A DNA stretch of 64,000 nucleotides from a plasmid: sequence record NZ_CP017041.1; one strand, 5' to 3'. Positions 4,918 through 56,639 of the stretch are shown one piece after another. A program made the translations under genes and the position numbers. Within the stretch, counting starts at the first letter, position 1; each line of letters opens with the position of its first letter. Below the pieces are notes generated by a model, which saw only the letters and a program-made list of their open reading frames with translations, was not told the DNA's origin and did not search any database.

Positions 4918-4939
4918 CTTTATCTCCCTTCATACTACA

Positions 4940-7900: not shown

Positions 7901-8236
7901 GGGTGTATAGATGGCACCTACGGCACTACAAGCTAGGATATCGACAAGACATTCGATACCGCGCGAGTGCTCTGAAATGACTACTCTTCCAAAGGCATGT
8001 TTCTTTTCCAAGAGATAGGCTCGATTGTTAACTCGATTCAATAACATTTCGTAGGTGATTTCTTCACCATGAATATCTATTACGGCAACGTGATGTGAAG
8101 TGATCTGGGCCCATTCAACTAAATACGAGTAGAGTGTGCGTTCTAAAGGCCAGTCGACGTTTTCCCCGACCAGTGCACTCCGGGTAGCGAGCAAGCTCAA
8201 CCCATTTTTTTCCAAACTTTTGGTAAGGTTTATCAC
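4940..8236 (-). CDS. NRPS A-PCP-C tridomain protein (C domain C-terminal, with degenerate HHxxxDG core)
   Basis: A domain motifs FTSGSTGEPKG, NAYGPTECS, YRTGDL, GRADRQIKISGVRIEPGEIE and NGKVD are followed by PCP (ESGGDSLRAIQL). A condensation domain follows, with a C1-like MNPAQQGIYFQ and a core reading MNEILIDGWG instead of HHxxxDG. Confidence 0.9.
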   Translation of the reverse strand: MINLTKSLEKNGLSLLATRSALVGENVDWPLERTLYSYLVEWAQITSHHVAVIDIHGEEITYEMLLNRVNNRAYLLEKKHAFGRVVISEHSRGIECLVDILACSAVGAIYTPIDPQWPEARRKHIKTITNAVAIFTENTSHVTEAKAPLGVTFLERVDDPFNAPSYCFFTSGSTGEPKGALIAHMGMMNHLHSKAHLLHLGVDSVVAQTAPTTFDVSIWQFCSALLVGGAVRIVPNGISQDPHELFSLLEEKHITHIELVPTVFRELIHEIGSSVSFSGLEYVLVTGEELPLRLARDWADKFPFVPLINAYGPTECSDDVTHAIVDGESLNSGEVPIGIPIPNTSLYVLEYAEGTWRPVSPGAQGELFVAGLCVGLGYIGSPDKTAQAFARIDGYPFRIYRTGDLVHQRADGQLVYDGRADRQIKISGVRIEPGEIENRILREIPELEDVVVVKFHPRVRERRAMVLRETTHQFLRQGDASLAAFYLPRADCLVTPKMLNNRAKSSLPRVMCPSRWIEVTDIPTTSNGKVDIKLLERRAGELLLNEIQESREGSIPGRVEQNQDSFILLVQDVLGTPVNPELTFIESGGDSLRAIQLANIVRSRGSYVRVRDLLSSYTLGSLAKEYQAQQISPKKSTSAKRSPSRFDDVKIPLTCDMNPAQQGIYFQWLLEPESPYYNYQILLECAGSNTDRIRRALGQALRANPQLMAKFGVDSTGRFTQTFPISAIDMDEISIHEVASAQEAREICWMKAAVPFNLEEGPAIAVDEIRINGYSTWFVLTMNEILIDGWGAMKFMEQLISLFECRNMDDQEIEVKTAMTSALEYFQHLSKPEEISAEAREFWSKSLDGVKSCFPLRDTLNSSCDPYAASVIEVSLDDEATAEIRSTAHALSTSPFAVFVAAYSLALAAVSDQHDFVVGAPVAGRNDEYEIGVPTLMLNMIAIRTRIDVEKKISDTVRSMISNVTEAVSFGDSVFSKVVSEFADHTNEDPLFSTMVNMLTYPSLEFWDGDRSLHLTELNTGFTKYDASLYIQRHGEDYTLQLAYKVAYVTPERANKVLALTAWFLTSDWLSGKTTVANAIKTALNDCDTSQITMLKSY

Positions 8237-8243
8237 TCTATAT

Positions 8244-9233
8244 TCACCGTTTCATGTCTCCGTGAAAGTCTGGAACACGTAATCCATCGCCGGATATTTG
8301 AACGTGCTCGTACAAGCTTTGAGCAACAGCAAGGTCCAAAATTCCTAAACCAAAAGGAGAGAATACGGTTGGATGATCAGGGTCAAGCTGCTTCTCAGAG
8401 CATATGAATTCCGCCAGTGTGCCTGTGATGAAATTTCGATTTCCGTTCAATTGTTCGAGGAGGTGGGGTGTAGTGTTTGCCTTCAGGCAATGTTCAACAT
8501 CATCAAACACGTTATTAGCCGTTCGAATGGTCTCAGGGTGTAAATCACGAAGCGAGATATTGAGAACGAGCTGGTTCGGTTGGAAACGTACACTCATCGG
8601 CACATAAGGAGTTCCGGCGCTGGTGGCTAATAGCACGAGATCACAGCCAAGAGCTTCTTCTAAACTGACTACCGAACACTCGGGGCCGTGGCGAGTGACT
8701 ATACGTGCGACTAATTCACTATTTAAATCGTGAATTTTCACTGGAACCGCTGTCGTGTATAGCGACTTAATAAAATGTAAAGTTGTCTGTGCGATAGGGC
8801 CACTGCCTACTACACCGATACTCGTAGGAGCACCGTGAAGAACTCGAACTGCAAGCGCAGCCGAGGCAGCTGTACGAGCCGCACTAATGCGGCTGGCCTC
8901 GATGAACGCATAAGCATAGCCGTTATCTGTGTTATTTAGCACGATGACTGCTGAAGCTCTTTGTAGCCCATGATCAACATTCTCAGGAAAGCTAGAAATC
9001 CATTTAATTCCCGACACACAGGTTTGATCATTGATATAAGATGGCAACGCTATGATACGATCTCGTGGAGCATCTGGAAACCGAAGAAAATAACTATCGG
9101 GACATACTGTATTTCCAGCGTGATGTGCTCGATAAACACGTTCAACAAGATCGATGAGAAACGACTCTCTGCCTTTTAAAAATGTTTCGACAAGCTTGGC
9201 GTCTATAATTAGCATTTCACCATATTTCGTCAT
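8244..9233 (-). CDS. sbnB: SbnB-like NAD-dependent dehydrogenase (ornithine cyclodeaminase/mu-crystallin family)
   Basis: 329 aa ORF with a Rossmann motif (GVVGSGPIAQ) in the OCD-family layout. It sits directly downstream of the SbnA-like gene, the canonical Dap-synthesis pair. Confidence 0.75.
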   Translation of the reverse strand: MTKYGEMLIIDAKLVETFLKGRESFLIDLVERVYRAHHAGNTVCPDSYFLRFPDAPRDRIIALPSYINDQTCVSGIKWISSFPENVDHGLQRASAVIVLNNTDNGYAYAFIEASRISAARTAASAALAVRVLHGAPTSIGVVGSGPIAQTTLHFIKSLYTTAVPVKIHDLNSELVARIVTRHGPECSVVSLEEALGCDLVLLATSAGTPYVPMSVRFQPNQLVLNISLRDLHPETIRTANNVFDDVEHCLKANTTPHLLEQLNGNRNFITGTLAEFICSEKQLDPDHPTVFSPFGLGILDLAVAQSLYEHVQISGDGLRVPDFHGDMKR

Positions 9234-10235
9234 TTAAATACCTTCCGTTTCTTTCACTTCGTGCGCAACAGGACGAATGGCATAATTAAATGCTGATTCC
9301 CCAAAGTTTTCCATAACCCAATCGTCGTTATATACTCCATCCAGATACCTTTCACCAAGATCCGGCGCAATAATGACAACGCGGCTTCCCTCGGGAATTT
9401 TATCTCGAAGAGCATCAAAAGCTGCTAGCACAGTGCCAGTCGATCCACCCGGTAAAAATCCTTCTACCTGCGCAATGCGTCGGCACTGTCTCACGGTATC
9501 GATTTCATCAATATAATACCGTTTTAGAGGAAATTTTTCGTCAAAGATTGGTGGCTTTACACTAGCGCCTAGACCAGGGATATATCGCCGCGAAGGAGCT
9601 CCTCCGAAAGTCACTGAACCAGTGCTATCAATAGCATAAACTTTGGTGCATGAACCACGCTTCATGACAGCCCTAGATACACCCATAAGCGTGCCAGTGG
9701 TACCAGCACCTACAAATAGGTAATCAGGATCTCCTAACTCTTCGACGATCGCTCTATATGTCTTTTTGGAATGAACCTCAGGATTGGCTACATTTTCGTA
9801 CTGGTTTGTCCATAAAGGCCCTCCTGGCATCTCTACTAATTCGCGAACTCTAGCAAGTCGCGTCCCAAGAAATCCGCCCGCTGCATCCAATGATTGAACA
9901 ACTTCCACTTCCGCGCCCAGTGCACGCATATGCGAAATCGACCTTGAATTTGCATTCAGATCTGTAACAATTGTTAATTTGTATCCTCGGCGCGCACATA
10001 CACCGGAAAGTGCTATGCCTAAACTCCCAGAAGAAGACTCTACGACCCAACCTCCTGGCTGAAGACCATGAAGCTTTTCTAAGCTATCGACGAGTGCAAT
10101 AGCCGTCTTGAGTTTTACGGAACCAGCAGTGTTTAAACCTTCTAATTTTGCGTAAACATCATGTTTAGGAAATGAATTTTTCAAGCGGACAAATTGAGAG
10201 TTTTCATCTAGTTCTTCAATAGATCCTGCAATCAT
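9234..10235 (-). CDS. sbnA: SbnA-like PLP-dependent synthase (cysteine synthase fold)
   Basis: 333 aa ORF with a PLP-lysine motif (KLEGLNTAGSVKLK) and glycine-rich loops (GAGTTGT, GGSTG). It is the first gene of the NRPS operon. Confidence 0.8.
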   Translation of the reverse strand: MIAGSIEELDENSQFVRLKNSFPKHDVYAKLEGLNTAGSVKLKTAIALVDSLEKLHGLQPGGWVVESSSGSLGIALSGVCARRGYKLTIVTDLNANSRSISHMRALGAEVEVVQSLDAAGGFLGTRLARVRELVEMPGGPLWTNQYENVANPEVHSKKTYRAIVEELGDPDYLFVGAGTTGTLMGVSRAVMKRGSCTKVYAIDSTGSVTFGGAPSRRYIPGLGASVKPPIFDEKFPLKRYYIDEIDTVRQCRRIAQVEGFLPGGSTGTVLAAFDALRDKIPEGSRVVIIAPDLGERYLDGVYNDDWVMENFGESAFNYAIRPVAHEVKETEGI

Positions 10236-10425
10236 TTATTTGCTCCTACTGCGCATGACATGACATCGGAAGTTTTCATAACATACAAGCAAATTATAAT
10301 GAGGAGTCTTGTACAGGCTATGGGCGTTATTAGAAGAGGTTTAGGCAAGAAGTTAAGGATCTTGATCATGTTGATCCTGCCTACGAATGGCGTTGATAGA
10401 ATGACAGAGACAACAACACATATGC
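10236..10425. promoter_or_regulatory. Divergent promoter region between NRPS operon (minus) and PPTase gene (plus)
   Basis: A 190-bp AT-rich intergenic region lies between two divergently oriented genes. No promoter motifs were computed. Confidence 0.3.
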
Positions 10426-11250
10426 GTGACCTCCCTAGTGATACACGCTGAAGTAACTTGTCACCTACTTCATGAGCTAGTCTATCTCCTTATAGGACCA
10501 CATAAAAGAGAGGACCAAAAATTGATCTACATTTCTCGTGTGTCACTCGATACATTCCCCAAGAGTGCCTTGCCACAGCTGATGGAAAGAGCTAGTCCTG
10601 AACGACGAGATAGAGCACGAAGATACGTGCGAATCGATGACTGCTTGCGCTGCCTCATAGCTGACGAACTCCGGGCCTATTCATTGAAGCTTGATTACAA
10701 GGTGCCAGTACAGTCAGAGGTATCGAAGAACGCTTTCGGGAAGCCGCTACTAGCAAACCGCGATGGTCCTAAGTTCAACTTGTCGCACGATGGGAAGTGG
10801 ATTGTCTGTGCCACAAGCCCACATCCTGTAGGCGTAGACGTCGAGGCAGTCGCTGAGCCAGGTTTAGCGGTGGTCTCGAACGATTTTTCAGTGGAAGAAG
10901 TGGAGGCCTTGCGGACGACCGCTACGGCTCCCCTCTCCATCGCTCGAGCGATGATCTGGACACGGAAGGAGGCATACCTCAAATATCTGGGGTTGGGTCT
11001 CACTGTTCAGTTAGATTCTTTTTCAGTAATAGATCAAACCTTGCTGTCGCCAGCTGAAGGGATGACAGACGGTATTCAGTTTTATAGTTGGTGCGATGCC
11101 GATAACTCGCATGTGATCTCTGTCTGTGGCCACGGCGAGGAAGTCGTCATCTCTTGCGTCAGCGGGCAAGAATTACTAGATGGACTGCCACCATCTCACT
11201 GTTCAGAAGAACCTCAAGAGCAACTTCGTTGGTTGCCCAATCTTAGTTAA
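10426..11250 (+). CDS. Sfp-type 4'-phosphopantetheinyl transferase
   Basis: It has the FNLSHDGKWIVCATSPHPVGVDVE and WTRKEAYLKYLGLGL (W/FxxKEA) motifs. The true start may be internal, because Sfp enzymes are about 230 aa. Confidence 0.7.
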   Translation: MTSLVIHAEVTCHLLHELVYLLIGPHKREDQKLIYISRVSLDTFPKSALPQLMERASPERRDRARRYVRIDDCLRCLIADELRAYSLKLDYKVPVQSEVSKNAFGKPLLANRDGPKFNLSHDGKWIVCATSPHPVGVDVEAVAEPGLAVVSNDFSVEEVEALRTTATAPLSIARAMIWTRKEAYLKYLGLGLTVQLDSFSVIDQTLLSPAEGMTDGIQFYSWCDADNSHVISVCGHGEEVVISCVSGQELLDGLPPSHCSEEPQEQLRWLPNLS

Positions 11251-11349
11251 GATCATTTTGTAATTATCAAAATTCCAAGTCGCCTCGAGAAAAGCATTAA
11301 CAGAGATCATATCTCACCAGGAGAGATGCGGCTTAAATAACCTTCTCTT

Positions 11350-12054
11350 TCAATCCTTCATGACAGCTAGGCTCTTCACCTCGTCACGATCAAGTACTGG
11401 ATCACTCATGATAGATTTTTCGTGCTCAGCAATGCATCGTGGGCACTTTTTGAAAAAAACTGATCCGAAACGAGTTATACCTGCTGGTAGTGGCCCGTAA
11501 TTAGTAGCTATCTTGGCTATAGCTCCCCATGAAGGAAGAACCCATTCCACAGACTGTCCTTGAGCAGGTACATCCGCTGAACGTCGATAATCAAATCCAC
11601 CCAAGAGCTCCGCAAGATCCCAATAAGCATAAAATAGATCCGAGGCCAAATCGCTCTTCGAATGGACTTCTTGTCGCAAGTCACCATCGTGTAAAATAGC
11701 GATAGTGGATCCCCGATCCTCCCCATGCACCAATGGTGGCATGGAAGAAAATTTCCGAGTATTATAGACATGTACCCAACCAGATACGGATTGCTCTGGA
11801 GCCATCGGGACAACATGTGCTGGTATGGAATCGAATCCTAAATAAAAAGCTGCTCGACACCTGTGGGCTCCATCAAGGATGATGTAAGGTGCCCCTTGGG
11901 CTACGTGGATGCTTTCTCGTAATGCTTCATGTTCTAGCAATTTTGTAAGACGCTTGAGACGCAAAGTCTCACATTCCTCATGCCATACGAGTTGGTTTAG
12001 CGGAAGATACGATGATAACTCACAGCTACTACTAATTTTCATCAATTTCATCAA
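11350..12054 (-). CDS. ParB/sulfiredoxin-fold (ParB-like nuclease domain) protein
   Basis: 234 aa ORF. It carries the motif YIILDGAHRCRAA, which matches the DGxHR ParB/Srx signature. It is the last low-GC gene before the compositional junction. Confidence 0.45.
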   Translation of the reverse strand: MMKLMKISSSCELSSYLPLNQLVWHEECETLRLKRLTKLLEHEALRESIHVAQGAPYIILDGAHRCRAAFYLGFDSIPAHVVPMAPEQSVSGWVHVYNTRKFSSMPPLVHGEDRGSTIAILHDGDLRQEVHSKSDLASDLFYAYWDLAELLGGFDYRRSADVPAQGQSVEWVLPSWGAIAKIATNYGPLPAGITRFGSVFFKKCPRCIAEHEKSIMSDPVLDRDEVKSLAVMKD

Positions 12055-12956
12055 CTCTCAATGCACTATTAATGGCAACCTGGTCTTGAGATATCCGATC
12101 TATGACTCGGACCACTTTTTCATTGAGTAAGACAGTTTCTAGTATGTTTACTACGAATAAGGGAAAACTTTCTTCAATTTTACCTTAGGGAAAGATATCT
12201 CATAGTTCCGCATCACGACTATTGAAATTTGTAGATCGACCGACTTCTATAACCGATAAATTATGGGCGACTACAGCGATGTCTGTCGAGGCACCAACGA
12301 TGATTCTCGACAGCCCTGGACCCGCACTATCTCTTTTTGGGATGGAACGCATCGCATTGGCAATGCCTAACAGATCATGCTCTTCCGATCCTTGTCCATA
12401 CTTAACTGATGACCGCAGAAGCACAGATGCGGTAGGCATGGGCGGTGTCCGGATCATCCCCCCTTGGGAGCTAAGAGACCGTCGTTGATCACTACATCGA
12501 ACAAGGCCTGCAGGATAGGTTTACAAAACCGATCCGCCGCTACCACCAGTTCTGACACAAGCTTACGTACCATTGTTGATGCCATATCGCTCCTTCGCAG
12601 AAGCGTTCCGGGGGCTCGCAGACGGCATTGGCACCTTGGCACCGATGTCCGTGAATCCACAACGGAACCTGAAACTGCCCCACACGGTCTGATGCTCCGA
12701 CTTTCGTCAGCTTCCCCAGATCATCCGGGGCATCAATCCATTACCAGATTGACACTTAGCACTGTACCCTCACCAAGACCACACCAGCATCGAGGACGGT
12801 GGGAGAGAGGCGAACCCGCCACCACACGATGCACAAATACAAAAATACATAGGCATCATGATGCTCTTGGGCATCTCGCATACCCCCGTACGGTGCCCAA
12901 ACTCAATCCCTACGCAAAGCTCGCAGGCCTAAGTCTGCCCATCAAAATCATGGCTT

Positions 12957-13754
12957 TCACCAAACATCGATTTCTACACCGACTAGCCGACCCCTATCGG
13001 CGACATTGCCATACTGCTGACCCGCCTGGTCCTCTAGCCACGACAACGCATCCCGGAACATCCGCACGTCTTCCAAAGCGAAACCGCAGTCGTAGCCGCC
13101 CTTATCCCCCAACCGCACCATCTGGCGCTCCCGACGGCCACCTTCATCGACTTCGATCCATAGTTTCGCGTGCATCCGCTGGCCTCGGCCTTCTGACAGG
13201 ATCTCGGTGAGCAGATCGGAGGCTTGTCCTCGCGCATCCTCGTTGTCGCGAGGGAATTGGAGTGTGTGGGAAGAACGGTGGTGGGGCAGGTTTGTGACCT
13301 CGTGACGCAGCAGGTTGCGCTTGCGCATCTGCCGTTCGAGGCGCTCGGGCTGACTCGTTGACGGGGTTGTGCCGTGGCGGCGTTTCCTCGGCAGGGTTTC
13401 AATGTGTTTCTCGCCCAGCACCTCCTCGTCGGACTGTTGTGGTGCGCGGCTTCGTCTCGGGTGCAGGAGTTCGGCATCCGGTTCGGTGGGACGGTGAGAT
13501 GGTTTTCCGCGCTTACCGCGTACCTTCGCGGTCCGGCCTTTGCGATCATGCCGACGCCGCGGCGGGGTAACCTCCTCGCCCCGCTCCAACTGTGTTAACG
13601 CCTCGACCAGGTTGGTGCCAGGCTTAAGCCCTTTTAGCACGAACCGCACCAGGCGGGGGTCTCGGCCGATTCGTCGGGCAATCTCGGCTTGGCTCCACCC
13701 TTCGGCTAACAGGGTGCGCACCAGGTCCTGAGCCCGATTGTCACGCTCAGTCAC
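12957..13754 (-). CDS. HTH DNA-binding protein
   Basis: 265 aa ORF with an N-terminal helix-turn-helix (LLAEGWSQAEIARRIG) and a basic linker. It is translationally coupled to the upstream 568-aa gene by an 8-nt overlap. Confidence 0.45.
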   Translation of the reverse strand: MTERDNRAQDLVRTLLAEGWSQAEIARRIGRDPRLVRFVLKGLKPGTNLVEALTQLERGEEVTPPRRRHDRKGRTAKVRGKRGKPSHRPTEPDAELLHPRRSRAPQQSDEEVLGEKHIETLPRKRRHGTTPSTSQPERLERQMRKRNLLRHEVTNLPHHRSSHTLQFPRDNEDARGQASDLLTEILSEGRGQRMHAKLWIEVDEGGRRERQMVRLGDKGGYDCGFALEDVRMFRDALSWLEDQAGQQYGNVADRGRLVGVEIDVW

Positions 13755-25174: not shown

Positions 25175-25396
25175 GCTCCTGGATGTGCGGAGGAATTTGT
25201 CAGTGCTTGATCGCGGTGATCAGCCAGCCGGTCGCGGCAGTGGGTTCGGGCACCAGGGTCAGGTGCACCACGGTGTGGTCGGCCAAGGGCACGTCAATCA
25301 GGGGTCCGTCGGCAGTTGCCCCAGCGAAGGTGGGGGTGGCGGGCAGTTGCTGGTTAAGGCCTGGCTAGTTGACTTAAGCACACTATAGTAGGTGGT

Positions 25397-26017
25397 ATGA
25401 ATCTCAAGGAGTGGGCAGGAGTGCGCGGGATTTCGTATCAGACCGCGCTGCGGTGGTATCACCGTGGGCTTATGCCTGTTCCCGTGCATCGAGTGGGAAG
25501 GCTCGTGCTCGTTGATTGTGACGAGCATGGGTTGCCGTTCGAGGGATCGACCCCCGAGCCGACGAAAACGATCATTTATGCTCGGGTGTGCTCGGCGGAT
25601 CAGAAACCCGATCTTGATAGACAGATCGCTCGAGTCATGACATGGGCGAGCGCGAAGGAATTGTCGGTTGATGGTGTTGTCACCGAGGTTGGTTCTGGTC
25701 TCGATGGGCATCGGAAGAAGTTCGAGAAATTGTTGAAGGATGGTTCTGTCAGGACGATTCTTGTGGAACATCGCGATCGATTCTGCCGATTCGGGTCGGA
25801 ATACATTGAAGCGGCACTTTCGGCACAGAATCGTCGTCTCCTTGTTGTTGACGACAAGGAGATCGAAGACGATCTTGTGCAGGATATGACAGATGTGCTC
25901 ACGTCCATGTGTGCGAGATTGTACGGAAAGAGATCAGCGAAACATCGCGCCCGAAAGGCCGTGGAAACGGCCATGACCACTGGCGGTGAAGAATCCGTTA
26001 AGGATGATCACACATGA
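25397..26017 (+). CDS. tnpA: IS607-type transposase TnpA (MerR-like HTH + serine recombinase)
   Basis: N-terminal HTH (GISYQTALRWYHRG) and a serine recombinase catalytic region (IIYARVCSADQKPDLDRQ). Confidence 0.85.
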   Translation: MNLKEWAGVRGISYQTALRWYHRGLMPVPVHRVGRLVLVDCDEHGLPFEGSTPEPTKTIIYARVCSADQKPDLDRQIARVMTWASAKELSVDGVVTEVGSGLDGHRKKFEKLLKDGSVRTILVEHRDRFCRFGSEYIEAALSAQNRRLLVVDDKEIEDDLVQDMTDVLTSMCARLYGKRSAKHRARKAVETAMTTGGEESVKDDHT

Positions 26018-27459
26018 TCACGAAGCCCGCCGCCCCGAAATTGGACAAGAATGGCCCAGATGTTGTTGTCCGGTCCTACAAGTTTGCGTTGAAACCCACG
26101 AAGTCGCAGGAACAGAAATTGCGTCAGCATACGGGTGCAGCAAGGTTTGTCTACAATTATCTCATTTCCCAGTGGCGCGACGACATTCACACTCGTGCCG
26201 AAGAGAAGAAATGCGGCGTTCCTGAGGATGAATTGACGCCGTTCACGTTTAAGTTGTCTGCCTATGATATGCGTAATTACTGGAATCGCACCAAGGGCGA
26301 GTGTGCTCCGTGGTGGCCAGAAGTATCGAAGGAGATCGGCAACGATGCGGCACGTCGTGCCCATGACTCCATTGAGAACTGGTACGACTCCAAGGGCGGG
26401 AAACGCAAGGGCAGAAGAGTGGGCTTCCCCCGGTTCCACAAGCGCGGATGCCATGAATCATGCACGTTCTCAACCGGGACGATCCGTGTCAATCCTGACC
26501 GTCACTCGGTGGCACTGCCCCGAATCGGAACCATAAAGACTCGCGAAAATACGCGCGAATTGCAACGCAAAATCGCCAAAGGTACGGCAAGAATCACTCA
26601 GGCCACGATCTCTCGCGGGTTCAATTATTGGCACGTCTCCTTCACCGTGTACGAGAAGAAACACATTCCCGAAACCCACGCACATTCCGGCTCTGTTGTC
26701 GGGGTGGACATGGGTGTGGGAGATCACGTCATCGTTGCGGCAACCCCAAACGGTGATGAAGTCATGCGTAGGGGATTGCCGCAATCGGTCAAGAAGGATG
26801 AAGCGCGAGTGCGGCACCTTCAGCGCAAACTGTCGCGTAAGCATGGCCCGGATAAGAGGACGAAAACCACGCCCTCGAATCGGTGGATTCGCGCGAACAA
26901 CCAAGTCAATAAGTATCGCGCGAAACTGGCTAACATACGTCGCGATCTTGCGGCGAAGGCTGCTCATGGGTTGGCGACGAATTATGAGACCGTCGTCATC
27001 GAGGACTTGAACGTTCAAGCCATGATGACGCGCGGAGGCGCACACAAACGTGGTCTGAATCGCGCGATAGCGCAGGCCTCATTTGCCGATGTCAGGCGAC
27101 GAATCACCTACAAAACGAGGTGGAATGGCGGTAGAACCGTCATTGCCGATCGGTGGTTTCCATCGTCGAAAACGTGTTCGGAATGTGGAGAAGTGAAATC
27201 CAAGCTCTCCTTGTCCGAGCGTGAATACATCTGCCATCGTTGCGGTGTTGTCGTGGACAGAGACCTCAATGCTGCAACAAATCTGGCGAAATTAGCGGCA
27301 CCGAAATCCGGTGTCGATTTTCACGGAACCGGGAGTTCGCCGGGGATGGGACGTGGAGGCGCGGGGAAGACCAACTCATCCTCGGGTGAGCTGGCACCGG
27401 CCGGTGAAGCGTCAATGGCCCGAAAGGACCTGAGCGGCCGCAAGGCCGGCACGAGATAA
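26014..27459 (+). CDS. tnpB: TnpB (RNA-guided nuclease, OrfB_IS605 family)
   Basis: 481 aa ORF with a C-terminal zinc finger plus RuvC-III (CSECGEVKSKLSLSEREYICHRCGVVVDRDLNAATNLA). Confidence 0.85.
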   Translation: MITKPAAPKLDKNGPDVVVRSYKFALKPTKSQEQKLRQHTGAARFVYNYLISQWRDDIHTRAEEKKCGVPEDELTPFTFKLSAYDMRNYWNRTKGECAPWWPEVSKEIGNDAARRAHDSIENWYDSKGGKRKGRRVGFPRFHKRGCHESCTFSTGTIRVNPDRHSVALPRIGTIKTRENTRELQRKIAKGTARITQATISRGFNYWHVSFTVYEKKHIPETHAHSGSVVGVDMGVGDHVIVAATPNGDEVMRRGLPQSVKKDEARVRHLQRKLSRKHGPDKRTKTTPSNRWIRANNQVNKYRAKLANIRRDLAAKAAHGLATNYETVVIEDLNVQAMMTRGGAHKRGLNRAIAQASFADVRRRITYKTRWNGGRTVIADRWFPSSKTCSECGEVKSKLSLSEREYICHRCGVVVDRDLNAATNLAKLAAPKSGVDFHGTGSSPGMGRGGAGKTNSSSGELAPAGEASMARKDLSGRKAGTR

Positions 27460-27551
27460 CCTGACCATCAGAGTCAGTTCTCATGCAACGGTGAAGGCGG
27501 CCAGGCCTGCTGGGATGAGGATGGCGGCCGCGCTGACGGACCGTAGTGAGG

Positions 27552-49970: not shown

Positions 49971-50965
49971 CCCCCGATAGCCCCACCCTCTACGAGGTGT
50001 TAGGGGTTGCCCCCGACGCCACCGACACCCAGCTCAAGACGGCATGGCGCCTCGCCGCGAAAGCGACCCACCCCGATGCCGGCGGCGACCCCCAGGCGTT
50101 CACCACCGCCCAGCACGCCTGGGAAGTGTTGTCTGACCCGGGCTCCCGCGCCTCCTATGATGCCGCCCTGGCGGGAGAAGGCGACCCCGACGTAGAGGCC
50201 CCAGACAACACCGTCGACCCCTTGACCCCCTCGTGGTCGTGGAGTGTCTCCTTCATCGATGCCACCCCGCAGCTACGCCACACCCGGCCCGGCACGCTCG
50301 CCGCGATCGTGGTAGCCGCCGCCGGGGTCGAGGCCGGGATCGGCTGGCATGAGGCGTTGGAGGCCCTCGCCCCCTCTCCCGGGTTCGTAGGTTCGTGGTG
50401 GATGACCTCGGTTCCGGTCGTGGCCGCAGTGACATGGCTCGCGGCGATCACGGGGGTACAGGCCATCATGGCCGGGATCGGCTGGCTGGGGTGGGGCTTG
50501 ATCGGTGCCGCCTGCCTGTGGGGACACCCGTGGGCTGTGGCCGTATTGGGAGCCGGATGGGTGGCCTGGGTAGCCGCCGCAGTGTGGTGGTGGCGCCGAC
50601 GGATGGCCTGGCCTGCCCGCACCTGCCGGGCAGGAAACATGGTCGACATGCCCGAGGTTGACCCGCCATGGATGGAACCGGTGGAACTGGTAGCAGAACT
50701 CATCCCCTCCGTGCGGGCCATGTGGTCTCCTGACGGGCAAACGGTGGCTGTAGTAGCCGGTCGGCGGGTAGCAACCTTAGGGATGCCGATGCGAGGGTGG
50801 CGTGGCATCGAGATGCGGGGCTGGAACCCGATCGGTGCCGACACCGCGTGGATCGTTGACCAGATAGGCGGCTGGCTGGCCGACCAAGACAAACCGCTCA
50901 CCATCGACGGGAAAATCTTGTTCGAGACCTGGGACAGGCTACAGACAGTTCGTCCTCACAGCTGA
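49967..50965 (+). CDS. J-domain (DnaJ-like, HPD motif) membrane protein
   Basis: N-terminal J domain (LYEVLGVAPDATDTQLKTAWRLAAKATHPDAGGD...SYDAAL). It is followed by several Trp-rich TM helices and a cytoplasmic tail. Confidence 0.6.
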   Translation: MTPDSPTLYEVLGVAPDATDTQLKTAWRLAAKATHPDAGGDPQAFTTAQHAWEVLSDPGSRASYDAALAGEGDPDVEAPDNTVDPLTPSWSWSVSFIDATPQLRHTRPGTLAAIVVAAAGVEAGIGWHEALEALAPSPGFVGSWWMTSVPVVAAVTWLAAITGVQAIMAGIGWLGWGLIGAACLWGHPWAVAVLGAGWVAWVAAAVWWWRRRMAWPARTCRAGNMVDMPEVDPPWMEPVELVAELIPSVRAMWSPDGQTVAVVAGRRVATLGMPMRGWRGIEMRGWNPIGADTAWIVDQIGGWLADQDKPLTIDGKILFETWDRLQTVRPHS

Positions 50966-51040
50966 GAAAAATTTTGGGTCCGCCCTGCATATCGGGGCCT
51001 CTTCATACCTTCAAAAGTGTGAAGGGGAATACAGACTCTT
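50881..51040. repeat. Direct repeat copy A (last ~20 codons of J-domain gene + downstream hairpin ccttcaaaagtgtgaagg)
   Basis: About 75% identical to 53161-53325 over ~160 bp. The hairpin lies at 51008-51025. Confidence 0.7.
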
Positions 51041-51134
51041 CGACTGGAATTAAAATGGTATATGGCGTGTCCGGTCCGCACCCAGCTCCACGATGCGCCA
51101 TAGGGGAGCCATAACTTCACCAATCGTATACGAT

Positions 51135-51401
51135 ATGAGTGTGGGTGAGCATCTACCGGTGGCCGACAGTCAGATACAAGCATGGGCGGATGAAGCAGAA
51201 GCTGATTATGACCTCAGCATGCTTCCGCCGTCTCGACGTGGTCGCCCACCGGTGGGGAGGGGCCCGGGCACTGTGGTCCCTGTGCGCTTCGACGCGGACA
51301 CTCTCAAGGCGTTGTCACAACGAGCCCATGACGAAGGATTGACCACGCGTTCTGACGCGATCCGTGCTGCGGTTAACCAGTGGCTCGGCCTCGGCTCGTA
51401 A
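51135..51401 (+). CDS. RHH (CopG-family) DNA-binding protein / antitoxin-like
   Basis: C-terminal RHH (VVPVRFDADTLKALSQRAHDEGLTTRSDAIRAAVNQWL). The start at ATG 51135 is preferred. Confidence 0.45.
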   Translation: MSVGEHLPVADSQIQAWADEAEADYDLSMLPPSRRGRPPVGRGPGTVVPVRFDADTLKALSQRAHDEGLTTRSDAIRAAVNQWLGLGS

Positions 51402-51969
51402 ACATTATCGGCGCGACAACCTTACTGATGACGCTGTTGGTTACGCCGTAGAGCACATCTTGTACTCGTGGGCGCTCGACGATGCTGATGATCCTCGGTG
51501 CTGGATGATGATTCGGTGTTGACCCAGCTGGCCTCCTCATGGAGCTAGTTATCCTCATCTACGACGATGGCTATGAACTCCTGATCCACGCCATGAAAGC
51601 CCGCCCTCAGTATCTGAGCTACTTCGCTATCTAGTGTTGTTGGGCGAGTTGAACTCAACTTTTCTCCGACGCAAGCGCCAATAAAAGGCTGATCCATCCG
51701 AATACCACCAAACACGGCTGAAGTGTGGAACAGATTCAGCAAGACAGGGTGCGGTGCTCGGGTGCGTTGGGGAGATGAGGATATTCAGGCTTCTGGCGGG
51801 ATGTGGCTTGATGACGTCCAGGATCACCGGTTCGGTTTTGAAGGTGCCTTGCATTAATGTCGACAGGGTCGTACGACTCGAGGATTGGATCGACCAGCCC
51901 GTTGCGTCTGAAGAACTTCATCCACCCCGGTGGAGCTCCGGCCGCGTACTGGTGCAACGGATCATTAGC

Positions 51970-52944
51970 ATGGGTAGCGTGAGTATGCCTTCGATCGTGG
52001 TCAGTGCTGTCATCATCCAAGATTCTGACGGGCGGCTTCTCACTGTCCGTAAACGAGGCACCGAGGCATTCATGCTGCCAGGCGGCAAGCCGGAGCCCGG
52101 CGAGGACTCGCGTCAGGCAGTAGTCCGGGAAGTGCACGAAGAGCTCGGCGTCGCATTGTCTTCCGACGACCTGCGTCGGGTGGGAGTGTTCACCACGCGA
52201 GCAGCGAATGAGGCCGGCCATCAGGTGGTGGCGACGATTTTCACCCACACCCCGGTTGCGGTGAGTGAGCCAGCTGCTGAGATCGAGCAGATTCGTTGGC
52301 TCGATTGGAGTGTCGACGCCCTGCCTGACGACCTGGCCCCGCTGCTGGTCGAGGCAGTCATCCCGTGGCTGCGGCGCCGTATCCGGTCGGTCGCTGTATT
52401 CACGGGTGCGAAGGATGGAACCGACCCTCATTATCGTGTCGAAGCAACCGCCTTGGGCCGGGGTCTCGCACACGCCGGGATCACCCTGGTTTATGGCGGC
52501 GGGAAGGTCGGGATGATGGGTGCTGTTGCTGATGCGGCCCTCGCTGCTGGCGGCGCTGTGATCGGAGTGATGCCGCAGCACTTGGTGGACGGGGAGATCG
52601 CCCATCCTAGTCTGACTCACCTCGAGGTAGTGCGGACTATGCATGAGCGCAAGCAGCGGATGAGTGACCTAGCTGACGCGTTCGTCGCGCTACCCGGCGG
52701 CGGCGGAACCCTTGACGAGCTATTCGAAGCATGGACATGGCAGCAGCTCGGTGTACACAGCAAACCCGTGGCCTTGTACGACTCGACCTTCTGGGCACCG
52801 CTGACCGCGCTACTCAACCACATGACCATCGAAGGCTTCATCCGCCCTGAGGACCGCGCCTCGCTCGTGATCGCCGATACCATACATCAGCTGATGGCCG
52901 ATCTTGAGGGATGGACCCCACCACCACCGAAGTGGCGCTCGTGA
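51970..52944 (+). CDS. NUDIX hydrolase - LOG family (cytokinin riboside 5'-monophosphate phosphoribohydrolase-like) fusion protein
   Basis: Complete Nudix box (GGKPEPGEDSRQAVVREVHEELGV, i.e. Gx5Ex7REUxEExGU). It is followed by LOG signatures (VYGGGKVGMMGAV and ALPGGGGTLDELFEAW, i.e. GGGxxGxM and PGGxGTxxE). The start at ATG 51970 is preferred over the ORF-track 51754. Confidence 0.7.
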   Translation: MGSVSMPSIVVSAVIIQDSDGRLLTVRKRGTEAFMLPGGKPEPGEDSRQAVVREVHEELGVALSSDDLRRVGVFTTRAANEAGHQVVATIFTHTPVAVSEPAAEIEQIRWLDWSVDALPDDLAPLLVEAVIPWLRRRIRSVAVFTGAKDGTDPHYRVEATALGRGLAHAGITLVYGGGKVGMMGAVADAALAAGGAVIGVMPQHLVDGEIAHPSLTHLEVVRTMHERKQRMSDLADAFVALPGGGGTLDELFEAWTWQQLGVHSKPVALYDSTFWAPLTALLNHMTIEGFIRPEDRASLVIADTIHQLMADLEGWTPPPPKWRS

Positions 52945-53086
52945 CATAGAACAAATGATTCTGACTATGGCTCATTGACATCTGCGCAGCGGCTACTAGC
53001 TCCATTGACTTCAAATCGGGCCTTGGCCGAGGCTCGGTTCAGGTGGCCCGGAATGGATCCCCACAAATTGAATGCTCATGATCGAG

Positions 53087-53245
53087 GTGATGAACGCCCA
53101 CTCTATTGTCCTACGCCCGGTTGTATCCAGCGAGCAATTGAAGGTGCTGCGCCTGCTGGTCGACCAGGCCGAGCCACTCATCATCGACGGGCGCATCTTG
53201 TACGAGGCATGGGACAGGCTGCAAACAGCCCGTCCGGCCCGCTAG
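53087..53245 (+). CDS. Small ORF (52 aa) whose C-terminus is paralogous to the J-domain protein C-terminus
   Basis: MNAHSIVLRPVVSSEQLKVLRLLVDQAEPLIIDGRILYEAWDRLQTARPAR. Compare ...TIDGKILFETWDRLQTVRPHS at 50900-50965. It is below the ORF-track length threshold. Confidence 0.3.
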   Translation: MMNAHSIVLRPVVSSEQLKVLRLLVDQAEPLIIDGRILYEAWDRLQTARPAR

Positions 53246-53325
53246 AAAAAATTTTTAGGGCCCGCTCCGCACATCCCGGTCTGTACCCACACCTTCAAGG
53301 GTGTGAAGGGAATAAAAACACACCT
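53161..53325. repeat. Direct repeat copy B (with hairpin ccttcaagggtgtgaagg)
   Basis: About 75% identical to 50881-51040. The hairpin lies at 53292-53309. Confidence 0.7.
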
Positions 53326-53396
53326 AACAACAACTTTGTTTCATGATTTGGCGCGTCGGACCCTTTCTGACCGATGTCGTGCGCAACAATGGACCC

Positions 53397-53741
53397 ATGA
53401 GTTCGCCTACCAAGATGCGCCGGAAGGGAACACGCGGCCCGAAACCTCGCAGCGACGAGGAGCTAACGGCTGTGATGTGCCGCATCCCAGAGTCAGTGGC
53501 CGAACGTGTCAGCGATATGGCTTGGGAGCTGAGGCTCTCCCGATCCGATCTTGTGGGCTGGTCGGCCCTCTATGCACTCAACTCGATGCTCAGACAGCGC
53601 GGAGAGGACACGATTCCGGTTCCGGAGTATCTGGACAAGGCCGTGCTCACTGCGTTGTATCCCGATGGGTTGCCCTTCGACGAGGACAACGAGGAGCCGG
53701 GCGAGAATGCCGGGCAGGAGGAGCTTGCGATGACTGGATGA
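53397..53741 (+). CDS. RHH (CopG-like) protein upstream of rep-like gene
   Basis: RIPESVAERVSDMAWELRLSRSDLVGWSALYAL ribbon-helix-helix with an acidic C-terminal tail. Confidence 0.4.
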   Translation: MSSPTKMRRKGTRGPKPRSDEELTAVMCRIPESVAERVSDMAWELRLSRSDLVGWSALYALNSMLRQRGEDTIPVPEYLDKAVLTALYPDGLPFDEDNEEPGENAGQEELAMTG

Positions 53742-54054
53742 GCCCGAACATGGTTGAAGGCCGCCCCGCCAGGCGACCTTCAATCAATGGTTTCGGTTGT
53801 CAGCTGCAGCCACCCTTGCCAGGTGCTGTGGTTCTTCTCCAGAGGAGGAGGGACCGCCATGAAGACCAAGAAGACCTAGAAGATCCAAAAGAACCGGTTT
53901 CAGCTTTTGCTTCGGTCTTCATGGTAGCTGATAGCCCGCGTCGTTGGAAGTGCGACGACGCCGATCCTCATCGGTATCGCACCCTGAAACAGGGTGTTGA
54001 ACATGAAGGGTTGACCGCTATGTCAAGCCATGAGACGCCCTCCCGGAGGGCGTC

Positions 54055-55605
54055 ATGACCGCTTTAATTCAAGCTCTGCCGACAGCTGAACTGTCTGCTG
54101 GACCTGGTGCTAGCAGTCCAGCTAGACCCTCTGCTGAGGGCTTCATCAAGATTCATCACGACCTCATTAGTGCGGGCGTGTCGGGTAACGCGATGGCGTT
54201 GTTCGTCGCGTTACGTAACCAGCCCGGCTGTGATCAGTGGACCCGTCACTCGTACCTGCGGCTAGCCCAATGGTGCGGCTGGGATGGGCTGTCGGAGGCG
54301 GCGGGCTGTAAGCGGGTGCAGCGGGCCGCTGCTGAGCTCGCTAGCGGTGGTTGGCTGGAATCGCGGGTCGGCCATGATCGTCGCACCGCTAAGACGCTGG
54401 TGTGGCATCGGTTGACCAGCCCCGACACCGACCGCTGGGAGCAATTGCCGCGGATTGTGTGGGCGAGGATCTGCCAGATCGCCGGGGAGACGTCGGGAGA
54501 GTGGGTGAGGCATTGGCTGGTGTGGCGGATGCTGGCCGGTCGTACTGGTGTGGCTCAGGCCCCTACGTCCATCGTGGCCCGGTTCCTGGGCTGTTCTTCG
54601 CGCCAGGTCTCTCATATCCGTGGGGCTCTCGTTGATGCCGGTCTGCTCGGCTGTGACGAGGTGTCGGGGGCGGCGAGCCGGGTGTGGTTCCCCTCGATGG
54701 CCGAGGAGTGTGCAGCGGATCGTGAGGTGGTCGATGGGGCCGTCGTCGGTGCTGGGGTGGGCTCTGGTGAAGGTGTCGAGGAGGGCGGGGAACCCCTGTC
54801 GATTTTGTCCACCCACCCCTGTCGATTTTGTCCACCCACCCCTGTCGATTTTGTCCGCCAAGTATTAGACAAACCATTAGACAGTGAATTAGACCTTGGG
54901 TCGCGTCAGCGTGTTAGCTCACCAACGCGCGCGCGCGCGGCGGCCGAGCCGCCGAAGCCAAAGAAACCCATACCACCAACGCCTGAACCAGCAGCCCCCG
55001 CTTCAGACAGTCCTGTGTCAGCGCACGCTGATGAGGCTGCCGAGTTGGCGTGGCGGTTCGTGGGGTGGTGTCCTCAGCTGGTAGGGGCACCGAAGAAGGT
55101 GCGTGGCCAGCTCCGTCAGATGGTTGCCAAGCAGATCCGTCTCCATCGTGCCTGGCTGGATGTGCCGGCGTTGACTGTTGCCGCTGAGCGAGTCCGGGAA
55201 ATCGGGGCGCTGGGTGATCGGCACTGCGAGATCGTTCGAGACGAGCTGCATGGCGTGATTGCCGACCGCAAGGCAGCCCCCCCAGCCCCCTCACCCTCAC
55301 CAGACGAAGGAGACACGACTGTGTGGATTTACAAAGACCCTCATGAGACTCTTGACGAGTTTGCGGCCAGGACTGAGCCCTCTCGTGTGTGGGAGGTCTC
55401 CGAGCGCGATGACATGGCTGGCGGGATCGCCGTGAACTTGCTGGCGGCTAAGCCGGATGATCCGATGGGCTGGCTGACTCGCCGGCAAACCATGCTGATG
55501 GTCCGGTTCCCCCAAGCCGTCGACGAGGTCGTAGAGATGTGTCACATCGTGCGTACCGCCTTGGAGGCCGACATGGCCGCCGGAACCCGGTGGGAGGACC
55601 GATGA
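54055..55605 (+). CDS. Replication-initiator-like protein (N-terminal winged-helix) with internal 23-bp iterons
   Basis: 516 aa ORF. The N-terminus (FIKIHHDLISAGVSGNAMALFVALRNQ) resembles Rep/wHTH proteins. A 23-bp x3 repeat lies inside the CDS. Confidence 0.45.
   Translation: MTALIQALPTAELSAGPGASSPARPSAEGFIKIHHDLISAGVSGNAMALFVALRNQPGCDQWTRHSYLRLAQWCGWDGLSEAAGCKRVQRAAAELASGGWLESRVGHDRRTAKTLVWHRLTSPDTDRWEQLPRIVWARICQIAGETSGEWVRHWLVWRMLAGRTGVAQAPTSIVARFLGCSSRQVSHIRGALVDAGLLGCDEVSGAASRVWFPSMAEECAADREVVDGAVVGAGVGSGEGVEEGGEPLSILSTHPCRFCPPTPVDFVRQVLDKPLDSELDLGSRQRVSSPTRARAAAEPPKPKKPIPPTPEPAAPASDSPVSAHADEAAELAWRFVGWCPQLVGAPKKVRGQLRQMVAKQIRLHRAWLDVPALTVAAERVREIGALGDRHCEIVRDELHGVIADRKAAPPAPSPSPDEGDTTVWIYKDPHETLDEFAARTEPSRVWEVSERDDMAGGIAVNLLAAKPDDPMGWLTRRQTMLMVRFPQAVDEVVEMCHIVRTALEADMAAGTRWEDR
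54793..54861. repeat. Tandem 23-bp repeat x3 (cccctgtcgattttgtccaccca), iteron-like
   Basis: Three copies with a period of 23 bp, not a multiple of 3. They are read in three frames (PLSILSTH / PCRFCPP / TPVDFVR) inside the rep-like ORF. Confidence 0.8.
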
Positions 55606-56363
55606 GGTCACTGCGGCGAAACATCATGGTTGTGGCTGGTGTGCTCGGCGTCGCGGTAGCGGCGGGCCCGACCTTAGCCAGGTCGTTGCCGTTTGCCGAC
55701 AGGTCTCAGCCGCCGACGACCAGAAATGCCACCCAGGCGGCCGCAACCGGTGCAACGGCTGCGGCGGGCGCGCTCAACCGTCTGCCAGTCAAAGGCAAAG
55801 CAGCGATGACCGGATACACCCGGACCCAATTCGGGCAGGCGTGGACCGATGACACCGACCGGGAGTTGACCCGCCCCTGGGGCCACAACGGATGCGACAC
55901 CCGCAACGATGCCCTTGCCCGCGACCTGGTCGAGGCCCACCTGAAACCCGGATCACGATGCGTGGTCGTCTCCGGGCGACTCCACGACCCCTACACCGGG
56001 TCCACACTCGCCTGGCGGCGCGGCCGGCACACCTCGACAACAGTCCAAATCGACCACGTCGTAGCCCTCGGGAACGCGTGGATTACCGGCGCGCAAAAAC
56101 TCTCACCGCTGCAACGCACCGCCCTGGCCAACGACCCGTTGAACTTGCTGGCTGTCGACGGACCCGCTAATGAGGCCAAACGAGACAGGGATGCAGCGAC
56201 CTGGCTACCCCCTAACAAGGCCTACAGATGCGACTATGTGGCCCGCCAAATCGCCGTCAAAATGAAGTACCAGCTGTGGGTCACCGCCGCAGAGAAGACC
56301 GCTATGGCGCGGGTATTGCACCGCTGCCCGACCCAGACACTCCCTGTAGGAGCCACACGATGA
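55602..56363 (+). CDS. Secreted DUF1524/HNH-type endonuclease
   Basis: Signal peptide (MRSLRRNIMVVAGVLGVAVAAGPTLA). HNH-like core (IDHVVALGNAW...NLLAVDGPANEAKRDRDAATWLPP). ATGA overlap with the rep-like stop. Confidence 0.55.
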   Translation: MRSLRRNIMVVAGVLGVAVAAGPTLARSLPFADRSQPPTTRNATQAAATGATAAAGALNRLPVKGKAAMTGYTRTQFGQAWTDDTDRELTRPWGHNGCDTRNDALARDLVEAHLKPGSRCVVVSGRLHDPYTGSTLAWRRGRHTSTTVQIDHVVALGNAWITGAQKLSPLQRTALANDPLNLLAVDGPANEAKRDRDAATWLPPNKAYRCDYVARQIAVKMKYQLWVTAAEKTAMARVLHRCPTQTLPVGATR

Positions 56364-56524
56364 CCACCCATTGGATCCCCGAACAACTCCTAGAACCCGG
56401 AGTCGGAGTCATCCTCGACACCGAAACCACCGACCTGGACGGGCGCATCATCGAAATATCGATCATTGACGCAGCCACCGGGACGGTCCTGATGGACCAA
56501 CTCATCAACCGTTGCACGAGATAA
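56360..56524 (+). pseudogene. DEDD (DnaQ-like) 3'-5' exonuclease N-terminal fragment, truncated
   Basis: 54 codons with an Exo I motif (GVILDTETTDLDGRIIEISIID). It ends abruptly at ...CTR* in a sequence homologous to the IS607 right end. Confidence 0.4.
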
Positions 56525-56556
56525 CCTGACTACTCAAGTTAGTTCTCGTGCAACGG
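56512..56556. repeat. IS607 right-end-like hairpin (solo copy)
   Basis: The sequence ccgttgcacgagataacctgactactcaagttagttctcgtgcaacgg is a perfect 13-nt-arm palindrome. It is about 80% identical to the sequence at the tnpB 3' end (27455-27500: cacgagataacctgaccatcagagtcagttctcatgcaacgg). Confidence 0.5.
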
Positions 56557-56639
56557 TTGTTTAGAGGAAGGGGGCCGGGCGGTGAGCCCGGGCCCCTGGT
56601 GTGTGCTGAGTCGGCCAACGGGCCCAGCACACAGGTCTG

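Follow-up and report, generated by a model that had tools for sequence, protein, structure and literature searches.

A facultative NUDIX-LOG module between diverged direct repeats in Cutibacterium Tad-pilus plasmids, and the repeats as probable substrates of homologous recombination

The stretch of 64,000 nucleotides (nt) analysed here, called the window, comes from the plasmid of sequence record NZ_CP017041.1, which is a Cutibacterium Tad-pilus plasmid of the pIMPLE-HL096PA1/pKB17-24694 family. From about position 13000 to 64000 the window has ~62% G+C and corresponds to the large Tad/Flp-pilus plasmid family of this genus. The locus of interest is located between the last gene of the Tad block, which codes for a J-domain membrane protein (the J gene), and a small gene that resembles those for ribbon-helix-helix (RHH) proteins, called RHH2; a gene of 516 codons and then ParA are found further 3'. 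Between the J gene and RHH2 there is a module composed of a first RHH gene (RHH1), the remnants of a toxin gene, a gene for a NUDIX-LOG fusion protein, and a spacer, called preB, that leads into an open reading frame (ORF) of 57 amino acids. The module is flanked by two directly oriented repeats, A and B (Table 1), and the exchanges that take place in these repeats are the subject of this work.

Each repeat copy consists of the last ~32 codons of an ORF, the J gene in A and the 57-amino-acid ORF in B, followed by ~70 nt of noncoding DNA with the palindrome CCTTCA-N6-TGAAGG. A repeat search detected the two copies as a direct match of 101 nt and 76% identity (50875-50975/53155-53255) and a second match of 23 nt and 87% over the palindrome (51004-51026/53288-53310). 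In a gapped local alignment, 129 of 167 ungapped columns are identical (77.2%). The alignment scores 75, and 500 composition-preserving shuffles give 11.2 +/- 1.4 (z = 44). A cassette flanked by diverged direct repeats, as proposed in an earlier interpretation made from the letters of this DNA (the sequence-only reading), is thus confirmed, and the peptides quoted there for the two tails are indeed the C-termini of the J protein (A) and of the 57-amino-acid ORF (B). The description of the repeat as a gene end plus noncoding DNA was also right, but not the lengths assigned to these parts (~20 codons and ~90 nt). The protein tails align over 32 residues with 59% identity (BLASTP, E 1e-12). The search for the repeat unit in phages and other plasmid families gave no match; it was found only in five Cutibacterium plasmid records, twice in each.

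The comparison covered 40 related loci, which are designated below by L numbers and stem from plasmid records, a single genome scaffold and metagenome contigs; they were classed by BLAST against segments of the window. The single-cassette arrangement is present in 15 loci, and all six finished plasmid or scaffold records have it. The cassette is missing in seven contigs belonging to three J-gene lineages, and in plasmids of this kind the J gene is followed at once by the B-side intergenic region and RHH2. In four of these contigs (L009, L010, L024 and L035) the J allele is ~55% identical at the protein level, and its stop codon is followed by the equivalent of window 53248-56510 at 93% identity. 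L021 carries a full-length J gene of the L001 type, one intergenic region, and then RHH2 at 100% identity; the two remaining contigs, L007 and L008, are described below. L009 and L021 have in common a distinct intergenic allele, in which the left arm of the palindrome is changed (CCTTAT-AAGGTG-TGAAGG). Because of this common allele they are not products of a deletion between A and B, and their arrangement is probably the ancestral state. The noncoding part of copy B is closer to this allele (60% identity) than that of copy A (49%), which suggests that B is the resident copy and that A came with the module. At the same site, L022 carries a different cargo, bordered at its right by another J-tail fragment truncated at a different codon. 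In this respect the proposal of the sequence-only reading, a modular insertion that duplicated the 3' end of its neighbour, is supported by the comparison with cassette-less relatives that it had called for: the module is facultative and is located in a duplicated copy of the J-gene tail.

Identity to the window, computed in 60-nt steps, is very unevenly distributed along these plasmids. The interior of the module (50987-53150) is ~100% identical in every plasmid, including preB, which is conserved at this level in all backbones up to ~53150. In the L001-type plasmids the J gene is 47-82% identical, and identity jumps to 98-100% just past the J stop codon. The plasmids with the B' type of copy B (L002, L003, L006 and L013) are 100% identical to ~53150, 43-83% identical across copy B and the 5' two-thirds of RHH2, and 100% identical again at 53627. 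These steps, one just past the J stop codon and the other where copy B begins, place breakpoints of recombination between plasmid lineages at the two ends of the repeat unit.

The repeats themselves have also exchanged sequence. In an alignment of 19 copies, and in the J-protein and 27 small-ORF clusters, the tails of A and B are patchworks of each other, in both directions. For instance, copy A of L004 carries a B-type tract, CGCATCTTGTACGAGGCATGGGACAGG, of which L011 and L003 have nested shorter versions. In the other direction, the small-ORF variants P0009-P0013, which belong to B copies, have A-type ends (TVRPHS), and B' alleles contain A-type blocks. Mosaic tails are present in finished plasmids too, such as L004 and L003.

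The similarity of the two tails could also be due to selection, if the 57-amino-acid ORF were a functional small protein sharing a C-terminal interaction motif with the J protein. In all B variants the reading frame is intact and stops at the same place, RefSeq annotates the ORF, and the motif [IV]DG[KR].L.E.W[DE].LQ..R is common to the three nearest J-tail types, being only partial in the most distant one (L009: VDGYLVSDVWSRLQ). However, the noncoding part of the repeat is as similar between A and B as the coding part (69% versus 73%), and identity is distributed in tracts, some of them nested, that comprise synonymous as well as nonsynonymous sites, as gene conversion predicts. Moreover, the ORF is absent altogether from cassette-less plasmids and has neither a Pfam family nor homologues outside this plasmid group. 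Selection on a functional peptide is thus quite improbable as the origin of the similarity, and the 57-amino-acid ORF is most likely a gene-fragment ORF. One of its variants, P0003, shows a 7-residue internal tandem duplication in the tail (IDGRILYIDGRILY), a slippage-type change in the most recombination-active stretch.

Larger rearrangements between the copies were detected at the assembly level. The deletion product is found in L007 (an assembly of the Joint Genome Institute) and L008 (Logan, three samples), which have the A context up to ...GGCCGACCAAGAC and B-type sequence from GAGCCACTC on; past the switch, palindrome B, RHH2 and the 516-codon gene follow at 98.6% identity. The reciprocal product is found in L043-L046 and L048-L050, from seven samples, with the order NUDIX-LOG 3' end, preB, a hybrid repeat (B at the left, A at the right), A-type intergenic region, and RHH1. 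L049 and L050 are closed assembly cycles of 2279 nt, with terminal overlaps of 30 nt (k-1, for a word length k of 31) and arbitrary starts, which indicate unbranched assembly graphs; they differ from each other at 1 position in 2279 nt. L048, assembled with MEGAHIT at k=141, extends from the J tail through copy A, the cassette and the B/A hybrid to 53 nt beyond palindrome A of a second unit.

The B/A hybrids are of two classes, and each switches within the longest perfect A/B identity of the matching A allele, which is a block of 38 nt for the L004-type A alleles and of 24 nt for the L011b-type. The deletion hybrids switch elsewhere, at a third position that is poorly matched between the two copies. 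All these switches are located 70-130 nt upstream of the palindrome and, when conversion tracts and the edges of the backbone mosaics are also taken into account, every mapped exchange is found upstream of the palindrome by 20-130 nt, in the coding tail or just past its stop. The variable switch positions, together with duplication switches that track identity, point to general homologous recombination rather than to a site-specific one. We consider, with a probability of about 0.75 for the explanation as a whole, that the repeats flanking the facultative 2.2-kb module act as substrates of general homologous recombination, and that exchanges at or in them have put the same ~100%-identical module into diverged backbones.

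The positions of the junctions also bear on the possibility that the palindromes are recombination sites (attC-like, dif/Xer-like or attL/attR), with a dedicated recombinase acting at the hairpin, one of the two functions considered in the sequence-only reading. The architecture does resemble that of islands whose insertion leaves two copies of the target 3' end, each repeat ending in a symmetric sequence; a closed cycle of 2279 nt exists, and serine recombinases occur in relatives (the TnpA of an IS607-type element in the palindrome loop, and a resolvase in the L022 cargo). However, there is no integrase in or beside the module, nor in the pIMPLE annotation save for a short recombinase fragment where the plasmid ends. 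Instead of a short identical core, the repeats have 77% identity over 170 bp; the exchanges lie upstream of the palindrome, and the duplication switches fall in the longest identity blocks and vary from one event to another. In addition, the 6-N6-6 palindrome has neither the 11-6-11 structure of Xer sites nor the paired R/L boxes of attC, and the insertion of the element at GG is the known target preference of IS607. The junction positions largely refute a site-specific system, which appears to us extremely improbable.

The IS607-type element is located outside the cassette in the window, and its place in relatives is either the loop of the palindrome or the J gene. In L011, L022, L023 and L025-L029 it is found in the loop of a B-type palindrome (CCTTCAA/GG..., the stroke marking the junction), after an L001-type J gene. 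To the right of the insertion sequence (IS), the same contigs carry a second J 3' fragment (from window 50495 or ~50797), copy A and the cassette, so that these plasmids have three copies of the repeat unit. All four types of IS607 junctions are at GG and lack target duplication. Both features are characteristic of the family (PMC6188088), and the insertion in the palindrome loop fits the GG preference rather than a property of the palindrome. It is the only event that maps inside the palindrome. A hot spot for IS insertion was considered and rejected: the contigs concerned share one left junction and one J allele, and they probably derive from a single insertion event at a GG.

The sequence-only reading also suggested a search for the palindrome elsewhere. 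CCTTCA-N6-TGAAGG occurs exactly twice in the 64 kb, against 0.13 expected, and its 12 arm positions are identical in A, B and B'; the surrounding DNA is ~70-75% identical. The statement that both copies end in the same hairpin applies to the palindrome as DNA and fails for the predicted RNA structure, since the minimum-energy folds are in different registers: in A an 11-bp stem is possible (-15.8 kcal/mol, z -2.6), and B folds in another register, no better than shuffled sequences (z -0.66).

The fold of copy A would fit terminators, of the Tad/J operon in one case and of the NUDIX-LOG/small-ORF transcript in the other, that were merely copied with the gene end and have no role in DNA exchange or regulation. 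Each palindrome lies 43-47 nt past a stop codon, actinobacterial terminators are often devoid of U-tracts, and such a function is reconcilable with recombination between the repeats. However, neither palindrome gave a match in a scan for the terminator consensus or has a T-run. RNAalifold on five intergenic types gave a penalising covariation term (+1.76) with many broken pairs, and in the cassette-less lineages (L009, L021) the left arm is mutated without compensation. The 8-mer that includes the left arm also occurs as isolated half-sites, which are unable to form hairpins. The shared intrinsic terminator of the sequence-only reading, with its weak, register-shifting stem, is thus not sustained; the palindromes as mere terminators are an unlikely explanation, although a weak terminator function is possible. 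A scan for sigma-70 promoters detected none at the palindromes, and the Rfam scan of 50500-54200 gave only a chance match to a small nucleolar RNA (E 0.43).

The 8-mer that contains the palindrome arm (ACCTTCAA, or TTGAAGGT on the other strand) is present six times in the window, and five of these six half-sites are located within 51007-53783: the two left arms, two isolated half-sites (51838 and 53138), and one arm of a third hairpin located after RHH2. In none of 1000 simulations did four half-sites fall within 2.8 kb. From palindrome A to the likely start of RHH1 there are ~110 nt, and from palindrome B to that of RHH2 ~90 nt. Because of the local over-representation of ACCTTCAA, our preferred guess is that the palindrome is a putative operator-like protein-binding site, ~90-110 nt upstream of each RHH gene. 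The third hairpin is probably the terminator of RHH2. In Cutibacterium modestum (L002) its upper stem differs and yet pairs, a covariation judged by eye. The TTGAAGG/CCTTCAA heptamer seen in the palindromes recurs in the arms of this hairpin, oppositely arranged. Two further CCTTCAA/TTGAAGG heptamers, 241 nt apart, were found at 58737 and 58978, where there are small overlapping ORFs downstream of ParA.

The following sequence of events could account for the locus. The ancestral order, kept in relatives, would be J gene, one intergenic region, RHH2 and the 516-codon gene. The donor would be a related plasmid with a J gene, an A-type intergenic region, RHH1, the toxin gene, NUDIX-LOG and preB. 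One joint with the cassette-less plasmid would have formed by homology in or near the J tail, and the other by illegitimate recombination 32 codons before the resident J stop codon. As a result, the J gene would now end in the incoming tail and intergenic region (A), with their resident counterparts (B) left over as the 57-amino-acid fragment ORF. What the variants described above show is the present behaviour of the two copies: they swap short patches by gene conversion, and recombination between them deletes the module or gives rise to a tandem copy or a 2279-nt circle of it. The palindrome is a passenger of the duplicated intergenic DNA and not the crossover point.

A more ambitious interpretation is that the 2279-nt unit is a genuine translocatable circle that moves between Cutibacterium backbones without a recombinase of its own. 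It would integrate in the Campbell manner through its built-in copy of the J-gene tail, so that the interrupted gene would always be repaired; the palindrome and the clustered TTGAAGGT half-sites would be the operator set of a plasmid regulator linking the replication module with the end of the Tad operon. Such a circle is compatible with the isolated closed cycles, whose two samples are unrelated, and with the ~100% identity that the module shows in backbones of 47-85% identity; we nevertheless hold it, including its operator set, to be unlikely.

Several points weigh against the explanation by homologous recombination between A and B. All the structural variants come from short-read assemblies and not from long reads or experiments. 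For the 38-nt class of hybrids, graphs built at k=31 have nodes common to A and B, and L043 and L044, which are Logan contigs, might in principle be mis-joins. L048 begins with an untrimmed Nextera adapter (positions 1-42, TCGTCGGCAGCGTCAGATGTGTATAAGAGACAG), which is a quality flag, and a closed cycle does not tell a circle from a tandem array. The direction of change for L021 and L009, insertion or deletion, is deduced from parsimony and from their distinct, C-type intergenic allele. The origin scenario is a hypothesis drawn from identity patterns, and no donor plasmid with J, A and the cassette in the absence of B was recovered among the collected loci. With regard to the palindrome, the isolated half-sites are located in ~100%-conserved DNA, so that their conservation is uninformative, and that at 51838 is deleted in C. 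modestum with no obvious consequence.

Some of these points would favour a static locus, in which the repeats are the relic of one ancient duplication and the recombinant contigs are assembly chimeras caused by the repeats. The six finished records all have a single cassette, the variants come from short reads, and some A alleles share with B 38 nt, more than k=31. However, a repeat-induced chimera is impossible in L009, L010, L024, L035 and L021, because they have a single copy with a distinct intergenic allele. The second class of hybrids and L048 are not explicable by shared 31-mers either: in that class the shared block is of only 24 nt, so real 31-mers joining B- and A-specific bases are needed at k=31, and L048 was assembled at k=141. 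The arbitrary starts of the cycles and the mosaic tails of the finished plasmids L004 and L003 also disagree with a static duplication, which we regard as highly improbable.

Table 1. Features of the locus and related elements in the window (positions in the 64,000-nt stretch)
Feature	Position	Strand	Remarks
IS607-family element	25334..27491	+	Serine-recombinase TnpA and TnpB; Pfam Resolvase; OrfB_IS605/TnpB domains; junctions at GG
J-domain (DnaJ N-terminal) membrane protein gene, 332 amino acids	49967..50965	+	Pfam DnaJ E 3e-14; last of the Tad/Flp-pilus block
Repeat copy A	50868..51036	+	J-gene tail (stop at 50965), A/T tract (GAGAAAAATTTTGGG), then palindrome
Palindrome A	51008..51025	.	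CCTTCA-AAAGTG-TGAAGG; left arm in ACCTTCAA half-site
RHH1, CopG/BrnA-like ribbon-helix-helix gene	51093..51401 (RefSeq start 51135)	+	Pfam RHH_1 E 7e-6; BrnA_antitoxin weak
Frameshifted toxin pseudogene, two frames	51402..51635	+	Translations; tblastn to genes annotated 'toxin'
NUDIX-LOG (TIGR00730/SLOG) fusion gene	51754..52944	+	Pfam NUDIX E 2e-14, Lysine_decarbox E 3e-41, LDcluster4 E 9e-14
Isolated TTGAAGGT half-site upstream of the NUDIX-LOG gene	51838..51845	-	Within the 289 nt deleted in pKB17-24694
preB spacer (part of the cassette)	52945..53148	+	Holds the 5' part of the 57-amino-acid ORF and a TTGAAGGT half-site at 53138-53145
57-amino-acid ORF	53072..53245	+	C-terminal 32 residues are the duplicated J tail; no Pfam family; annotated by RefSeq
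Repeat copy B	53149..53319	+	Duplicated J tail, A/T tract, palindrome; resident-type intergenic region upstream of RHH2
Palindrome B	53292..53309	.	CCTTCA-AGGGTG-TGAAGG; in relatives, IS607-type element at GG of the loop
RHH2-like small gene	53343..53741	+	No Pfam match; pattern RGPKPR...CRIPESV
Third hairpin, after RHH2	53751..53785	+	GTTGAAGGcCGCC...GGCGaCCTTCAAt; fold -27.7 kcal/mol, z -3.06

With respect to the cargo, the content assigned to the bounded segment by the sequence-only reading (an RHH gene, toxin-like remnants and the NUDIX-LOG gene) was borne out by Pfam and tblastn. The toxin remnant matches genes annotated as 'toxin' on plasmids of Rhodococcus, Arthrobacter and Cellulosimicrobium (tblastn, 54% identity, E 3e-18); a Pfam family, for which a BrnT-like one had been guessed, was not matched, so that its homology is established via tblastn only. 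The toxin gene is broken in two pieces in all five Cutibacterium plasmid records searched. RHH1 is interpreted as the antitoxin of a decayed toxin-antitoxin pair. The order RHH gene then toxin gene, which recurs in pCPRO01 and in many Rhodococcus and Arthrobacter plasmids, is that of type II toxin-antitoxin pairs with an RHH antitoxin; however, only the RHH partner is intact here, since the toxin is frameshifted in all the Cutibacterium copies. RHH1 and RHH2 were also compared as possible paralogues, which would point to a bigger and older duplication, and BLASTP gave no alignment.

The start codon of the NUDIX-LOG gene is uncertain and lies somewhere in 51754-51970. Its assignment to a known defence gene was discarded, the PADLOC matches being weak (PDC-S07 on the NUDIX domain, 6e-11; PsyrA, 1.6e-3). 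In the C. modestum plasmid pKB17-24694 (L002, AP024748.1) a 289-nt deletion, equivalent to window 51574-51862, lies between the toxin remnant and NUDIX-LOG, and the annotation of that plasmid fuses the last frame of the remnant to NUDIX-LOG. The alternative cargo of L022 (10192-12808, minus strand) codes for an RHH/NikA-like protein of 118 amino acids and for proteins of 75, 344 (no Pfam family) and 187 amino acids, the last one being a resolvase with an HTH_7 domain. The 344-amino-acid protein was considered as an abortive infection (Abi) protein, which Pfam did not confirm.

Regarding the plasmid setting, 4.2 kb around the locus matched five plasmid records: pTP-CU411 (98.8%), pKB17-24694 of C. 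modestum (97.9%, with 74% of the query covered), p11-79 (93.9%), and pIMPLE-HL096PA1 and the PA_15_1_R1 plasmid (both 92%). The J protein has a hydrophobic middle section besides its J-domain; in L001 RefSeq labels it 'J domain-containing protein', with Tad genes upstream. These Tad-pilus plasmids have been linked to acne-associated strains of Cutibacterium acnes (PMC3666418) and to skin inflammation (PMC11137742). Their relative pTP-CU411 is described as a transferable erm(X) resistance plasmid (PMC9119108). In a scan of a one-genome-per-species collection the sole matching locus was a scaffold of 'Clostridium leptum DSM 753' (L006, DS480336.1), a Cutibacterium-type plasmid region of ~62% G+C. 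The homology of this scaffold to these plasmids had been noted previously (PMC3666418), and it may reflect either contamination or real transfer.

The first 13 kb of the window (1-13000) have ~46% G+C, against ~62% for the rest, and contain a small cluster of the non-ribosomal peptide synthetase type. Diaminopropionate synthesis is represented by an SbnA-like (PALP) and an SbnB-like gene, the latter of the ornithine cyclodeaminase family; the other products are an ATP-grasp enzyme, a phosphopantetheinyl transferase and two adenylation/carrier/condensation proteins. This low-GC block, which is 99.5% identical to C. modestum pKB17-24694 and is not found in C. acnes plasmids, looks like a foreign biosynthetic island on the plasmid. 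A concatenation artefact at the window start was ruled out: the block is contiguous with this plasmid type in pKB17-24694, and the window is therefore a single plasmid.

Other observations concern the IS607-type element. In relatives it is associated with large rearrangements: its right end is joined to window 50781 in L007, for instance, a junction implying that ~23 kb, with the Tad locus among them, were lost. An orphan copy of the IS right end (GCACGAGATAACCTGAC...GTTCTCGTGCAACGG, 87% over 47 nt) is present at 56514-56559 with no adjacent transposase, and could be either an IS remnant or a stand-alone end of the TnpB guide-RNA type.

In a text search of PMC3666418 and PMC5696575, neither these repeats nor a variable site at this place turned up. 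A recombination-prone junction of J tail and intergenic region explains assembly breaks and mis-joins here. It also marks the NUDIX-LOG module as accessory and variable in copy number, and the case as a whole is useful for assembling and typing these plasmids. The locus is also an example, testable by polymerase chain reaction, of ~170 bp of diverged homology that shuffles a module between plasmid backbones.

Among the known systems, integrase islands and prophages located in gene 3' ends share with this locus direct repeats derived from the 3' end of a target that remains complete, a symmetric sequence, and a circular-looking insert. However, no integrase was found among the ORFs of the cassette and no fixed or identical core at the mapped junctions; here the crossover positions vary and for the most part follow homology, and the cargo measures only 2.2 kb. 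Integron attC cassettes and the pdif modules of Acinetobacter, which depend on XerC/XerD, are also small modules bounded by inverted repeats with a 6-nt centre. The palindromes studied here differ from them in their 6-6-6 structure, in having both the same orientation, and in being embedded in 170 bp of ordinary homology with the exchanges elsewhere. Neither the pIMPLE annotation nor the cassette ORFs include an integrase such as the IntI of integrons. The only symmetric element is the 6-N6-6 palindrome, without the paired R''/L'' and L'/R' boxes of attC, and its 6-bp arms do not extend to the 11 bp of the 28-bp (11-6-11) Xer/pdif sites, which alternate in orientation. The element in the window and those of the relatives, with TnpA and TnpB, insertion at GG and no duplication, do belong to the IS607 family.

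Homology-facilitated illegitimate recombination and the formation of mosaic plasmids are known processes. The suggested likeness to the former lies in one joint with J homology and one non-homologous joint (preB/J tail, ~53150), and to mosaic plasmids in the recurrence of one module in backbones that have diverged, identity changing abruptly at the edges of the repeats. Here, however, the event is reconstructed without a recovered donor, and the partial duplication leaves the J gene intact. Unequal homologous recombination between direct repeats leads to duplication-amplification and to pop-out deletion, for instance of resistance genes flanked by IS copies or by ribosomal RNA operons. The locus described here has the traits of such a duplication/deletion unit: direct repeats around a cargo, a deletion hybrid, a reciprocal hybrid from duplication or circle formation, gene conversion between the copies, and variable, homology-dependent crossovers, which in the duplications fall in the longest identity tracts. 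It differs in that the repeats are neither IS copies nor ribosomal RNA operons but a diverged (77%) stretch of ~170 bp composed of a gene 3' end and intergenic DNA; a dependence on RecA is here only inferred. Thus, with no new mechanism involved, the locus is a clear and unsurprising new instance of a known process, plasmid mosaicism.

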